A DNA stretch of 64,000 bases from a virus, in the IMG/VR virus record IMGVR_UViG_3300027861_000016, positions 31,931 to 95,930 of that record. The stretch is one strand, 5' to 3'. This document shows positions 16,406-46,793 of the stretch, in pieces. The notes below the pieces were generated by a model, which did not search any database, was not told the origin of the DNA, and saw only the letters and a list, made by a program, of their open reading frames with translations. A program made the position numbers and the translations under genes. Within the stretch, counting starts at the first letter, position 1; the number at the start of each line of letters is the position of its first letter.

Positions 16406-16727
16406 TATAAAATACTGTTTTATCTGTGAATTCTAATAATTCTTCTTTCCAACCATTGGGAAGGAATGATTTAATATAATCTTTCAGAATCATAGAATGA
16501 CCTATATGAGATCTAACAAACTTATTAAGTCTTTTAATCTTAGCTACACCTTCTGGAGAATCATCAGTAGGATCAACTTGTTTTACATTCTTTAGTTTAC
16601 GCATATGAAGTCTATACTGTTTAGCATAGAATTTCTTCTTAGCTTTCTGCTCTTGACTACTATTGATTGTTTTAAATTCAACAACCTTTTCCTTCATTCC
16701 AGAATCATCTATTTCATTCTTGCTCAT
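16389..16727 (-). CDS. Hypothetical protein
   Basis: ORF overlapping neighbours in a tight operon. Confidence 0.6.
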   Translation of the reverse strand: MSKNEIDDSGMKEKVVEFKTINSSQEQKAKKKFYAKQYRLHMRKLKNVKQVDPTDDSPEGVAKIKRLNKFVRSHIGHSMILKDYIKSFLPNGWKEELLEFTDKTVFYNGKEL

Positions 16728-17094
16728 CTTCTATCTGTTTAAATTTAAAACCTATCGAACTTTGTGGTACTAATAATTGATTAATTAGTAAATTATCTTT
16801 TACTTTAAACAATGCTTTCTTCTCTAATAATGCATTCTTAATATTATGGTATTGATTGATGCTTAATCCCGTCTCTTCACAAAGTTTAATTATTTCACTC
16901 TTACTAAATACCTCTTTATTTAAAAAGAATACATTATGTTTAGGATATTGTTTTTTAAATTCTAAGAGAGATATTATTAAGTACAACATAATACGTATCT
17001 CAGTATCTGTTAATTTAAGTTCTCCTTGATATAATGATAAATACTTTGAGTAGAAATCATCGGTATCTTTATATGGTATTTCTAGTATTCTCAT
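16714..17094 (-). CDS. RepL-like winged-helix DNA-binding protein
   Basis: LTDTEIRIM...LCEETGLSINQYHNIKNALLEKKAL...LLINQ wHTH pattern. Confidence 0.5.
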   Translation of the reverse strand: MRILEIPYKDTDDFYSKYLSLYQGELKLTDTEIRIMLYLIISLLEFKKQYPKHNVFFLNKEVFSKSEIIKLCEETGLSINQYHNIKNALLEKKALFKVKDNLLINQLLVPQSSIGFKFKQIEDEQE

Positions 17095-17354
17095 ATTTGT
17101 ATAAATTGATCATTATATATTGTTGCTCCTCCTATATTAAGTAAAAGTGTTGCTCTGTTCAGTTTACTTAATGAGGTTCCTAAAGTCTGTCTAGAAATAT
17201 CTAGTTCTTTTTGTAGAACTAAACGTACTTGAGAATTAATAACAACAAAACCCGATTCCTCCATATAAGGAACCAGGCTAAATAACACTTTAATATCAGA
17301 GAGAGTTAACTCTCTGAATATTTCATTTGCTCTATCTTTAGTTATCTTTATCAT
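17091..17354 (-). CDS. RepL-like winged-helix protein
   Basis: LQKELDISRQTLGTSLSKL...IYN HTH pattern. Confidence 0.55.
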   Translation of the reverse strand: MIKITKDRANEIFRELTLSDIKVLFSLVPYMEESGFVVINSQVRLVLQKELDISRQTLGTSLSKLNRATLLLNIGGATIYNDQFIQI

Positions 17355-22680: not shown

Positions 22681-22919
22681 TTATCTAACTACAACTTAAT
22701 TACTTAATAACTAACTACTATGAACAAGATTATATTCAGAGCACTCGTAGAAACAATGACTGACGAAGAATTATCAATTCTTAATAAAGATAGTGAGTTT
22801 AAATCATTCTATAAGACTTTATAATGCATAAACTAAAAGAATTAATCAAACAAGCAATACCTTACACATGTTGTGTAGGGTTCTTTGCGGTATTTTACTT
22901 TATAACAATAGTGTTTAAC

Positions 22920-22946
22920 TGACCTCTTCGGAGGTTATTTTCTTTC
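22920..22946 (+). terminator. Intrinsic terminator (cUUCGg)
   Basis: TGACCTC TTCG GAGGTTA then TTTTCTTT. Confidence 0.7.
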
Positions 22947-22986
22947 ACTTCTGATTCCTAGGAATCATAATTTAATCGACTAAAAG

Positions 22987-23150
22987 AAATGATTGTTCCT
23001 CGATATTTATCACAATAGTTAGAAACCTTAGATAAATGATTGTCTCTTGATATATTAATACAACAGTCAGAGAACAATCTATTCATAGATTAATACAACA
23101 GTTTATACAGATATTAAGGCAACAGTCTATTCATGTATGAAATGATTGTT
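22987..23150 (+). repeat. Degenerate direct-repeat cluster (iteron-like)
   Basis: AAATGATTGT three times and GAT(AT)TAATACAACAGT-like motif four times in a gene-free stretch. Confidence 0.55.
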
Positions 23151-23243
23151 TGTCGAATTTGAGCTTCGAACTGGTCTTCGATGTGATTACCTCAACCAAC
23201 GTGACTACCTTGACCAAGGTGGGTATAAATAAAAATAAAAGAT

Positions 23244-23450: not shown

Positions 23451-23915
23451 TTAAAGTATTACTTTAAGTGGGTGCTATAAGTGGTTGAGTGTTAAGAAGT
23501 TAACGTGTTAGTCTCACTCCTTCCTATTCCCTCAACAATCCTCAATATTCACACTTCCATAACTAACCAACATTCTTTACCATTTAAACACAATTACAAT
23601 ACAACCCAATTGACACAGACTCTTCATATTACACCCAATAAAGAATATAAATCAATACCAAAACTCTTAAAAATATGCTTTACAATACAGTAAACGTACA
23701 ATTAACACTAAACCAATGGAAATACTAGCTCTATCAATAGGAATGTTATTAGGTTTAATAATATGGTTATTAGATGTTCTAACAAAGAAAGCACCAATAT
23801 TTGCTCTAATAATACTACTAGCAATTATAATTTCACTTCTAACTTTAATATTTAATCAATAAAGTTCATGAAAGAAAGACATGTATTAAAACAACACAAT
23901 TTAAACTAATCAAAT

Positions 23916-27612: not shown

Positions 27613-27816
27613 ATGGAAATAATAGGAACAACAATAGCAGTGATAATTGGAGTAGTAATAATGGCATTAATATATGCTTTACCTGTAATGTGGTTATGGA
27701 ATTGGTTATGTCCTGATATATTTGGGTTAACTGAACTAAGTTTCTTACAAGCATTAGGTCTATCATTATTATCAGGCATTCTATTTAAAAGTAATATTTC
27801 AAACTCTTCTGATTAA
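27613..27816 (+). CDS. Small membrane protein (MWLWNWL.P.IFGL family)
   Basis: Common phage membrane-protein motif. Confidence 0.6.
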   Translation: MEIIGTTIAVIIGVVIMALIYALPVMWLWNWLCPDIFGLTELSFLQALGLSLLSGILFKSNISNSSD

Positions 27817-27819
27817 ATA

Positions 27820-27851
27820 TTTGCATTATAACAAAAATAATATTACTTTTG
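27820..27851 (+). promoter_or_regulatory. Bacteroidota promoter TTTG-N20-TACTTTTG
   Basis: Perfect -33/-7 consensus at the start of a 690-bp gene-free region. Confidence 0.8.
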
Positions 27852-27938
27852 TCTCACTTATTTGAAACTACTATAGCTGGTAAACGTTTAATTAAATGTT
27901 CGCCAACAACACATGTTTATTTCATTTAAGTAAATACG

Positions 27939-28011
27939 GAAAACCCTAATATACCCCTTAATAGACTTGTTGATTTGGCGATCAAAATTCTTATTAAGGG
28001 TTTTCTTTTTT
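27939..28011 (+). terminator. Long terminator/attenuator hairpin with UUGGCG loop
   Basis: CCCTTAATAG...TTGAT TTGGCG ATCAA...TTATTAAGGG followed by TTTTCTTTTTT. Confidence 0.7.
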
Positions 28012-28400
28012 ACACTCCCTTATAAAAACATATTAAACGGTGTGCTGAATTGCACCTTAAAAGAAGGGTAAGAAATTGCCTGGGCCGAAGTCTCGAACAA
28101 AGGGAACAAAGACTACACTCAATAGCTTGATACGGTTGAAATCCGTGCTCGTTCTCTTTTATCCAGTAGTTTATAACTTACAACTATAAACTAACAGCTT
28201 GAATTTAAGTTCACACTTATTACTTGAGGCTTCTATAATATCTTTTCTGTTCCCTTTTAAGATATATGTCTCAGACCTGTTGTATTCTATTAACTTCTAT
28301 AGTAGACAATGATAGTAAATCTAAATTGTCGAAGAAGTGGCCCTGCGAGATACTAGGAGTGTAGCAAGCATTGAAGAGTGCTTAACTATTAAACTGGATG
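28011..28400 (+). ncRNA. Large structured non-coding RNA candidate
   Basis: More than 10 helices with G-U pairs, a GAAA tetraloop and crossing long-range pairings; no ORF. Confidence 0.65.
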
Positions 28401-28503
28401 GGTGATTCTCCTACAATCAAAATAACAAATCTTCATTTCTATTATTCTCACCAAATTTGACAGAGGGCGATAGCTATATCTAATAACTAAATAACTAACA
28501 AAC

Positions 28504-28839
28504 ATGAAACTAAAACTAATAACAATACTACTATTAATTAGTAGTTATGCTTTTGCATTTGAACTAGAAATAATAGCAGTTAAACAAAATGATTCTTTAG
28601 TAAAAGTAACAGGAAGTATATTTGGTAATGATGACCACATATTCATTAGTAAAAATGGTGAAGATTATACTTTCATAATTACTAAGATTATAAAAACTGA
28701 GGAGACATTACAAATGTATTGTGATGATGTTATCATAGGTATGCAATTTCTAAGAGAATGTGATGGTAATAAATTATTCAATATTACAATAATATTTGAA
28801 GATGGTACTATAGCATTTTTAACTAGAACTAATAACTAA
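28504..28839 (+). CDS. Signal-peptide-bearing hypothetical protein
   Basis: MKLKLITILLLISSYAFA signal peptide. Confidence 0.55.
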   Translation: MKLKLITILLLISSYAFAFELEIIAVKQNDSLVKVTGSIFGNDDHIFISKNGEDYTFIITKIIKTEETLQMYCDDVIIGMQFLRECDGNKLFNITIIFEDGTIAFLTRTNN

Positions 28840-29331: not shown

Positions 29332-29452
29332 AAAGGGATAGCTCAGTCTGGTAGAGCAAGGTATATTAGACGACAAACGGTCACTAGATTTATACTTTAA
29401 AGATAAACTAAGTCGCTTACCAAGGTCGTAGGTTCAAATCCTACTCCCTTTA
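29332..29452 (+). ncRNA. tRNA-like RNA with 54-nt structured insert replacing the anticodon loop
   Basis: AAAGGGA/TCCCTTT acceptor, GCTC-AGTCTGGTA-GAGC D-arm, GGTA/TACC anticodon stem, AGGTC variable loop, GTAGG-TTCAAAT-CCTAC T-arm. Confidence 0.8.
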
Positions 29453-29684: not shown

Positions 29685-29879
29685 ATGAACGAAGACAATC
29701 AAACAAGACTAGACAAGTTACAAAAGTTGAATGCAAATATCCTGGACAATCTAAAAGACTTGAAAGATTTAAAGGATCTAACAACTCAGAAGATGTGCAT
29801 GAGCTTATCATCGGTTTCTAAAGAACTAAATTCTCTAATTATAAAAGAAATTACAGGAGATATAGAAGATGAAAGTTGA
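29685..29879 (+). CDS. Small coiled-coil hypothetical protein
   Basis: Heptad Leu pattern; overlaps the start of the next gene. Confidence 0.5.
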   Translation: MNEDNQTRLDKLQKLNANILDNLKDLKDLKDLTTQKMCMSLSSVSKELNSLIIKEITGDIEDES

Positions 29880-31559: not shown

Positions 31560-31569
31560 AAGAATGGTT

Positions 31570-31647
31570 AGTAAACAGGCGTAATGCGGAATTGGTTCCA
31601 AACCCTATTATAGGTCGCTTATCCAGGTTCGAGTCCTGGGTTTACTT
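31570..31647 (+). ncRNA. tRNA-like RNA with non-cloverleaf interior
   Basis: AGTAAAC/GTTTACT acceptor and CCAGG-TTCGAGT-CCTGG T-arm; interior AGGCG/CGCTT helix encloses two small hairpins. Confidence 0.7.
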
Positions 31648-31798
31648 CGAAAAGTATTAATTAATAAAACTAAAAGATATGAGTTATACTAAAGAACAAG
31701 TAGAATCACTAATAGTTAAATTCAAAGGAGATAATTTCAAGCATTTATATATGACTATTGCTCAATTACAAGAATGGTTTACTAAAAACTTATAGATT

Positions 31799-32986
31799 AT
31801 GAATGTGCAACAATTGATAGAACAACTTCAACAATATCCTAAGAATATGGAAGTAAAGGTTCATAATGGATTAGTTGATGATTGGCAACTGTTTAATCTT
31901 ACTAGATATAGATTAGAAAGATGGGATGAGAATTTTATCTATAAAATGGCTATGCGTCAATGTTTAGATAGAGATAAGAATACTGAACTTCCTTTTAGAA
32001 TTAAAAAACAAGTATGGGAATATTCAGAGTCTTGCAGTGAGAATAAGAATAAAAAGTATAAAAATATATTATTACTTACTCCTATACCAAGAGGTATAAC
32101 TTCATCAGATAGATTAGGAACAATAGATTATTAATTAGAACAACATGAAAGAATTCTTTAAAATTAAGTATTATTTAACATCTTGGGAATATATATTAAA
32201 AGATTCCAGTAGATTACATTACGATAGAATATTAACAAATAAGTCTTCAAGAGGAGATCATTTGTATAGTTTTATAGTTACTAAAAGAACATGGTTAGAT
32301 AGAATACCTTTCTTTAAAATAGAAGATAGAAGGTATCAAGAAGAAGTATGGTTAGCTAAAAGTAGTTATCCATTTGTATCTGGTCAAGAATTAATAGGAT
32401 TTACATTCAAAGAAGATATTAGAGTATATTAAAAGATAAAATAGTTAGTTTAAATTAGGTTGTAATCCCAGAGAAGTAGTTAGCTCTGGGATTTTTACTT
32501 TAAAACAGATGATATGAAGAAACTAGATAAGAAAGAGATAGATTTTATAATAAATCTATTAAAGACAACAGGACTAGAACATGAAATAGAAGGAACAGTT
32601 GAAATTACCTTCACAGGCGTTCCAAGTGATAAAATACAAGGAGAAACTTGGATGATGAAAGGTAGTTATGCTCAAGGAACAGATAAATTAATAGCAACTG
32701 TAATAGACTTTGATCTATCTAGTTCAAAAATAGAAATACCAGATGAATTTTTAAACAGTTATGAGATATGAGAAAAGAAGTAGAAGTAGATGGAAATAAT
32801 TTCATAGTTCAATATGATTTCCAACCAGAAGAAGTACCTGAAACAGGACCAGAAGCACAATATCCTGGATGTGGAGCAGGTATAACAATTGAAGGTATTA
32901 TTTATAAAAGTGTAGATGTTTCGGAGATAATAGATGAGTATTTATATGATAGAATAGAAGACTTACTTTGGGAGGATCATAGATGA
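31799..32986 (+). other. Hypothetical ORFs 31799-32134, 32145-32432, 32514-32771, 32768-32986
   Basis: Co-oriented ORFs; terminator hairpin at 32464-32496. Confidence 0.55.
32464..32496 (+). terminator. Intrinsic terminator
   Basis: AATCCCAGAG/CTCTGGGATT then TTT. Confidence 0.7.
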
Positions 32987-45761: not shown

Positions 45762-46793
45762 ATGATTTTTGAAGTAAAAGATTTCTCAGGTTCAATAGTA
45801 GTTTCAGGAAAAGCAGTTGTAACCTTAGATGACGCAAGTCATAAAGTAATAATTTTTAATAAAAAGAATAAACCAACAGAAAATAAGAAGAAAGCTATTA
45901 TCCCAATCCCTTTACCACTTGAAACTATAGAAGTAGATAGAGTAATAGATCATACTATAGAAGATCCGCAGCCAAATTCAAAACCTATATCATTGAAAAA
46001 GGGGATATATACTTATAAATACTCTTCTTTACTTTCTGCTGCCTGTGGTTTAGGTCTTGTTTATCATAGACTAGTACTTGCTGTAAAAAATGGAGATAAA
46101 GAGATAGAAGGATATACAATTATAAAATAAATAACAAATAATTATGTAAGGAGATAAATTCTCCTTACTTTTACAAACTTTTAATAATAAATATATAATA
46201 TGAAATTACAAGAATTAGCTAAATTATCAATCGGAATCGTAGCAAATCAAGCAGCAATAACTATTGGAACAGGAAACAAAGTAACATTATCTAATGAAGT
46301 AGCAAAAACAAGACTTGGTTATAAAGAAGGAGATGTTTTATACATTGATAGATTAGTTAGAGATGAAGAGACTTATGATGTAATTGCTTGTTTACCTCCT
46401 GTAGAAGGAATTAAAACATTTGCTTTTAATAAAGGAGTATTATCTTTTGGAGATAAGTTATTAGCTGAGACATTAGGGGGTTTTGGTGCTGAATGGAATG
46501 TAGTAACTTTATTTGATACTATTGAATTAGAAGATAGAAATTGTTCATTACTAATTATAGAACAAAGAGAAGTAATTCTACCTACTAAAGTTGAGCCTAT
46601 TATAGAGAAAGTAATTGAAGTAGTAGAAACTCCTAAAGTAACTCCTAAAGTAACACCTACTATTGAAATCAAACCAGTGGAGCCTAAGATTATTACAAAT
46701 ACTGAACCTAAATATGGTGAAGAAGAGTTTGAGTCAGAAGCTCCTGAATTAGAAGGAACTCCTCAAGGACCATTTGGTAATTTAGTAAAATAA
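45762..46793 (+). other. Hypothetical ORFs 45762-46130 (NUMOD-like C-terminus) and 46200-46793
   Basis: Each is preceded by a hairpin (45715-45733, 46146-46168). Confidence 0.55.

Follow-up and report, generated by a model that had tools for sequence, protein, structure and literature searches.

In a tightly packed gene block of a marine crAss-like phage, the longest gap without coding sequence (27817-28503, 687 bases) is tentatively read here as a control region of the plus strand, in which an attenuating leader is followed by a G+C-enriched untranslated stretch; the probability of this reading is put at roughly 40%. The 5' end is the best-supported part of the locus. According to RNA folding models, it most likely represents a terminator/anti-terminator attenuator, and the predicted switch between the two folds is fairly well supported. 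Positions are those of the window, i.e., the whole 64-kb stretch of DNA that was analysed, which was taken from a linear IMG/VR virus record of 95.9 kb (bases 31931-95930). The terminase, portal, and major capsid proteins of the phage belong to crAss-type PHROG families; the major capsid protein shares 32-34% identity with its counterparts in gut crAss-like phages and 43-45% with those of a few IMG/VR contigs. The public runs in which the stretch occurs come from seawater, marine, and sediment metagenomes. No close relative of the phage was found in the collections searched: relatives of its DNA polymerase reach at most 42% identity, and relatives of its PNK exist at up to 70% identity, with no synteny between the PNK loci from IMG/VR and this one. 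The locus lies inside the early small-gene block and upstream of replication genes, the DNA polymerase gene being located at 32983. The first downstream gene (28504-28839, plus strand) encodes an orphan of 111 aa, whose N-terminus resembles a signal peptide and whose only database match is the protein itself.

The absence of genes from this locus, as reported by a first-pass annotation, is real: neither strand contains an ORF of at least 45 aa under translation table 11. The same holds for table 4 and for TAG read as Q, which rules out coding with recoded stop codons. The period-3 power of the locus (0.39) is the lowest among all 411-nt windows of the plus-strand block, for which the coding median is 3.6. 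The locus is single-copy in the 95.9-kb genome, and no protein of this genome leaves a trace within it, ruling out a pseudogene or paralogue remnant. A reverse-transcriptase-associated ncRNA was rejected as well, since the neighbouring proteins match neither RT nor defence-system families in Pfam and PADLOC; the neighbouring 393-aa protein contains no recognisable RT motif. Elsewhere in the genome, intergenic regions are short and AT-rich, with a GC content of 0.06-0.32.

The evidence for an attenuator comes from the folding of the leader. A terminator-like hairpin is present at 27939-28005 and is directly followed by UUUUUU, to 28011; its energy is -15.6 kcal/mol versus -8.4 +/- 2.4 in shuffles (z -3.0). 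The TTGGCG loop noticed earlier was confirmed at 27975-27980, and the complementary CGCCAA lies upstream at 27901-27906. These segments would join in an anti-terminator on the plus strand, in which 27897-27921 pairs with 27960-27984 (including the UUGGCG segment) to form a duplex of -19.1 kcal/mol. Segment 27960-27984 is common to both structures, as it also forms the inner 5' arm of the terminator. The region 27890-27988 folds at -19.5 kcal/mol versus -10.5 +/- 2.65 kcal/mol in shuffles (z -3.4), with 1 of 400 shuffles folding as well, and the MFE of the leader has a z-score of -3.3 to -3.5. Stepwise folds of the growing transcript gave a first leader hairpin, P1 (27878-27905, plus strand), of which the 3' arm includes the AUG of a short leader ORF together with the CGCC that is also required by the anti-terminator. 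The anti-terminator becomes the MFE structure once the RNA reaches approximately 27985, and the terminator does so once it has reached 28006. In silico, the leader shows both features expected of an attenuator: a stable hairpin with an immediate U-tract, and a second possible helix that would tie up one arm of the terminator. Because CGCCAA is available in cis and accounts for the UUGGCG segment, there is no need to invoke a plasmid-style kissing complex.

The short ORF (MFANNTCLFHLSKYGKP, 27896-27949, plus strand) has 17 codons and is putatively translated. This ORF runs across the anti-terminator's 5' arm and ends with its stop codon at the foot of the terminator stem, so that ribosome traffic or a leader-binding factor would set the balance between termination and read-through. 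The 17-codon leader peptide contains no run of a single amino acid and hence no hint of classical amino-acid sensing, which counts against the attenuator reading. Other intergenic regions on the plus strand carry plain terminators, consisting of a hairpin and a T-run, approximately 5-40 nt past stop codons, indicating that the phage makes use of the intrinsic termination machinery. The locus terminator is located 120 nt past the upstream stop codon and is atypically elaborate compared with the other terminators of the phage.

Taken as a mechanism, a promoter-like site with an operator-like palindrome would give rise to a leader of about 150 nt that adopts mutually exclusive folds, namely P1, the anti-terminator, and the intrinsic terminator with its U6 tract. 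Depending on ribosome traffic or on a leader-binding factor, RNA polymerase would stop at approximately 28010 or continue. Before reaching the 111-aa gene, the read-through RNA would span a G+C-enriched untranslated stretch of about 490 nt, which probably folds into local and some long-range plus-strand helices. The first-pass annotation had proposed a promoter and an attenuator gating a downstream RNA as part of a plasmid-style replicon; the promoter-proximal terminator and the plus-strand polarity are supported in silico, but the replicon is not.

The promoter-like site itself is a pattern match of Bacteroidota type, TTTG-N20-TACTTTTG, at 27820-27851 on the plus strand. It had been called a perfect Bacteroidota promoter; the motif is indeed present, but it does not stand out statistically, with 2 occurrences of TTTG-N17-23-TAnnTTTG found versus 3.96 expected in 64 kb. 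TAnnTTTG alone is mostly intragenic in the window. That the promoter pattern is not above chance counts against the attenuator reading. Operator-like repeats of AAAAGTAATATT occur at 27787 (plus strand) and 27839 (minus strand), with a one-mismatch copy at 27833 (span 27787-27852), and two of the copies make up a 22-nt near-palindrome (27831-27852) that overlaps the promoter-like site. Three of the four AAAAGTAATATT matches in the 64-kb window fall within 64 nt, and one other match lies elsewhere.

Two sigma-70-like sites, each with 11/12 matches, were also found on the plus strand: TTCACA-18-TATAAT at 28210-28239, inside the G+C-enriched core, and TTGACA-16-TCTAAT at 28457-28484, about 20 nt upstream of the 111-aa gene. 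They represent 2 of the 4 plus-strand sigma-70-like sites scoring at least 11/12 in 64 kb and could drive the downstream genes independently, which counts against the attenuator reading. The locus may consist of two unrelated neighbours, one being a stand-alone small RNA that starts from the promoter at 27820-27851, ends at the terminator at 28010 (about 150 nt) and possibly acts via its UUGGCG loop, the other a separate promoter region (28210, 28457) for the downstream genes, with no structured-RNA role for the core. This arrangement is plausible yet unlikely. It agrees with the strong hairpin and U6 tract about 150 nt past the promoter-like site, with the two sigma-70-like sites, and with the unexceptional fold energy of the core, but the significant anti-terminator pairing would be superfluous for a small RNA that is always terminated, and the G+C enrichment of the core would be left unexplained. 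The hosts of crAss-like phages are, moreover, usually Bacteroidota, whose promoter consensus differs from that of sigma-70. The few sigma-70-like sites in 64 kb with 11/12 matches (46170-46199; 3993-3966, minus strand; 28457-28484) are mostly intergenic and just upstream of genes, a pattern that is unexpected if the host belongs to the Bacteroidota with TTTG/TAnnTTTG promoters.

Downstream of the attenuating leader, the non-coding core (28011-28420, plus strand) is a candidate structured RNA. Its GC content of 0.361 is within the top 2.8% of 410-nt windows, and that of 28040-28149 (0.445) within the top 0.1% of 110-nt windows. All perfect helices listed in the first-pass annotation were found where it had placed them, and perfect stems of at least 8 bp are in excess in 28011-28420 (5 versus 1.47 +/- 1.23 in dinucleotide shuffles, p~0.01), with two of the five using one and the same 3' partner. 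The annotation had named dinucleotide-shuffled controls as a check on fold energy: the leader folds clearly better than its controls, but the full core reaches a z-score of only -1.5 on the plus strand (-0.1 on the minus strand). The plus strand of the core is about 8 kcal/mol more stable than the minus strand, while shuffles of both strands are equal. This bias fits several G.U pairs in short hairpins, in line with the earlier suggestion that such pairs point to a plus-strand RNA. Within the core, the best nested domain, of 262 nt (28082-28343), is closed by GGGCC/GGCCC and by GAAGUCUCGA/UUGAGGCUUC. The z-score of this domain (about 28080-28345) is -2.5 to -3.0 (-2.5 with 200 shuffles), a value that applies to a region picked afterwards. 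Relative to all 260-nt windows of its own genome, with G and C content regressed out, the best local window has an ordinary z-score of -0.95. The fold energy of the core, being not significant at full length and ordinary relative to genome windows, counts against the attenuator reading. The G+C enrichment, the plus-strand bias, and the excess of long stems are counted in its favour.

It is plausible yet unlikely that 28011-28420 is a stand-alone large RNA of a new class, perhaps pseudoknotted and gated by the upstream attenuator, as the first-pass annotation had offered for its fallback reading. Such an RNA would be in line with the G+C enrichment, the plus-strand asymmetry, and the z-score of the 262-nt domain, as well as with the excess of long complementary segments, among which is a perfect 10-mer complementary pair, and with a GNRA-capped hairpin at 28066-28081. 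On the other side, the core has no terminator at its 3' end, its fold energy is ordinary for this genome, and several of the proposed helices are mutually exclusive: AAAGGGAAC can pair either locally or with a distal segment, and two partners are available for GGAGUGUAG. Of the large pseudoknotted RNA proposed earlier, the non-coding and compositionally unusual core stands; thermodynamic support is weak, and this RNA is a reasonable but unproven candidate.

Comparative evidence bears on the same question. A cmscan of Rfam, as had been suggested for ARRPOF, PAGEV, ROOL, GOLLD, and group I/II introns, was extended to all 4227 families, riboswitches among them, and gave no match; in 27700-28600, only hits with E-values of 3.4-9 appeared, far under gathering scores. 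The collection of homologues from related phage contigs, also suggested, yielded none in any collection searched. Distant-mode blastn against INPHARED phages found no homologue of the locus, and neither did nhmmer and blastn when run on 88 loci surrounding relatives of the PNK and the DNA polymerase. In IMG/VR, four scans for exact patterns gave a single match (L090) with no similarity to the locus; a 20-mer scan of JGI metagenomes gave four matches, all by chance, and a scan of GTDB genomes gave one archaeal match, also by chance. BLAST and a covariance model built from a single sequence (R1) found none either, whether in the five crAss-like records that are nearest to this phage, at about 45% identity of the major capsid protein, or in all other loci; the model covered 1.5 Mb of related loci. 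A search of genome contigs for the major capsid protein gave nothing beyond chance. As no homologue was found, the locus has no support from covariation or conservation, which counts against the attenuator reading as well as against a new RNA class.

Near-identical fragments from three other studies, all of them short contigs of low depth, cover the core in part and are in favour of a new RNA class. Near-identical strains provide only four SNPs. In natural variant T28091C, the helix closing the 28082-28343 domain has G-C in place of a G.U pair, which was counted in favour of the attenuator reading; variants A28099C and T28298C affect terminal base pairs and cause a slight weakening, which was counted against it. 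In a variant from a sediment metagenome, 28014-28102 is swapped for 37 other bases and 28103-28153 is identical; what is lost comprises the two small 5' hairpins along with GGGCC and one copy of TACACTCC (that at 28011), a loss that speaks against a function of the core.

That the locus is an ordinary spacer or decayed foreign DNA, with the terminator of the upstream operon as its sole functional element, is quite improbable. The locus is an orphan with conservation undetected beyond near-identical strains, and its fold energy is ordinary for the genome, as a spacer would have it. However, genes are tightly packed in this genome, its intergenic regions elsewhere are short and rich in AT, and residual coding periodicity as well as any paralogue or pseudogene trace is lacking. 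The distance of 120 nt between stop codon and terminator, versus approximately 5-40 nt for the others, and the significant anti-terminator also speak against a mere spacer.

The main proposal of the first-pass annotation, an origin at this locus that is RNA-primed or activated by transcription, is controlled by the attenuator, and permits a plasmid-like state, is very unlikely. As the largest non-coding gap, with dense promoter-like sites and upstream of replication genes, the locus would be suitably placed. A GC3-skew model that places a bidirectional origin within 26.5-30.1 kb also improves on a single-skew model by 21.5 log-likelihood units. Coding-strand GC3 skew is 0.25 in the left minus-strand block, -0.05 in the plus-strand genes at 21.6-29.85 kb (n=16), 0.28 in the plus-strand genes beyond 29.85 kb, and 0.07 in the right minus-strand block. 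The best skew break, however, is at 29821-29869 (~29.85 kb), approximately 1.4 kb downstream of the locus and favoured by 2.6 log units over 28.2 kb; the right minus-strand block is heterogeneous, its AT3 skew is of the wrong sign, and an early-gene class effect accounts for the skew pattern equally well. The cumulative GC skew turns at approximately 21.5-22.5 kb, at the divergent gene switch. The low GC3 skew over 21.6-29.85 kb and in the right minus-strand block, compared with about 0.25-0.28 elsewhere, would indicate either head-on replication or a distinct class of early genes.

The sequence elements of a replicon are missing, too. The genes at 16714-17354, previously taken to be RepL-like, match neither Pfam nor PHROG families, PF05732 finds nothing in the whole record, and no RepL or Rep protein was detected in these ORFs, in the genes downstream of the locus, or elsewhere in the record; a PF01719 match is weak, below cut-off, and inside a giant virion protein. 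Within 27817-28503, no direct repeats or iterons, no DnaA box at up to one mismatch, and no AT-rich unwinding element were detected, and the locus is G+C-richer, not AT-richer, than its flanks. With the skew switch elsewhere as well, the plasmid-style replicon or RNA-primer origin was not upheld. An iteron-like cluster is instead present at 22980-23160, in the ORF-free gap 22681-23243, 5 kb from the locus and near the cumulative skew minimum. It contains three AAATGATTGT-N-GATAT-type units of 20-27 nt, three units at 24-nt spacing (AACARTYTAT...ATTAA), and inverted copies. Judged by its sequence, this cluster is a better candidate for an iteron-type origin or operator array than 27817-28503.

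In a preprint on the prototypic crAssphage (PMC10983915), RepL genes are proposed together with a pair of origins that enclose a stretch of near-zero skew. The parallel would favour an origin here, but it is suggestive only, and RepL, on which that preprint relies (PMC10983915), was not found in this record. Least probable of all is the combined scenario in which an attenuator-gated RNA of about 400 nt and of a new class primes or activates a second, plasmid-type origin, with 22980-23160 as the other origin and the near-zero-skew block between them.

Several other places in the window were noted. The iteron-like cluster lies just past a hairpin and T-run terminator at approximately 22921-22942. 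The same gap contains two small ORFs with ATG starts (22720-22924), one of 34 aa and a second, hydrophobic one of 32 aa, both shorter than the ORF length cut-offs used. The 265-nt ORF-free stretch at 23451-23715 appears by eye to be mostly C/A-rich and G-poor on the plus strand (unstructured, rut-like). An Rfam tRNA match at 29332-29452 (48.5 bits) extends over 121 nt, the model having 71 positions, and ARAGORN calls no tRNA there; the element resembles a tRNA-like gene whose anticodon region carries about 50 nt of inserted sequence. Inspection by eye suggested another tRNA-like element, with a T-arm-like CCAGGTTCGAGTCCTGG, at 31560-31660, in the 239-nt gap after a 154-aa gene, a region over which Rfam gives no match at E-values up to 0.5.

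How crAss-like phages regulate their genes is poorly understood, and an early-region attenuator that senses translation or a factor would be a concrete control point. Should the G+C-rich core prove to be a structured RNA that is conserved, the phage ncRNAs would gain a class; at present, the core is an orphan candidate. The analysis also removes the unsupported reading as a plasmid-like replicon and points to a better origin candidate in the same genome.

Compared with known systems, the core resembles GOLLD, ROOL, HEARO, OLE, raiA, ARRPOF, and PAGEV in its length of 300-400 nt, its phage context, and a G+C content above that of AT-rich surroundings. Unlike the large ncRNAs of Rfam and group I/II introns, it has no covariance-model match (E up to 10), flanking exons, homologues, or covariation support. 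Promoter-like sites and a long untranslated stretch upstream of replication genes are shared with ColE1 RNA II, T4 oriF/oriG, and the T7 primary origin, from which the locus differs in having no unwinding element or evidence of an RNA-DNA hybrid site, in the position of the skew switch 1.4 kb downstream, and in that the iteron cluster elsewhere is the better candidate. In IncI-alpha/IncB plasmids, the loop of the Inc RNA is 5'-UUGGCG-3'. As in the R1 CopA/CopT and IncI-alpha/IncB Inc RNA replicons, a hairpin of the locus exposes UUGGCG, a likeness that serves as a lead only. In contrast to these replicons, the locus has no convincing minus-strand promoter for a counter-transcript (a scan found one sigma-70-like site on that strand, at 27866-27837, with 9/12 matches and at chance level), no downstream rep gene, and no RepL; unlike in the Inc RNA replicons, the complementary CGCCAA is found in cis, where it would form the anti-terminator. 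From the trp, his, and pyrBI leader-peptide attenuators, the locus departs in that its ORF has no regulatory codon runs, not a gene but a non-coding stretch of about 490 nt follows its terminator, and no family model matches it. It shares with them a promoter-proximal leader, a short ORF over one arm of an alternative helix, and a mutually exclusive anti-terminator and terminator with a U-tract, a switch that is here predicted.
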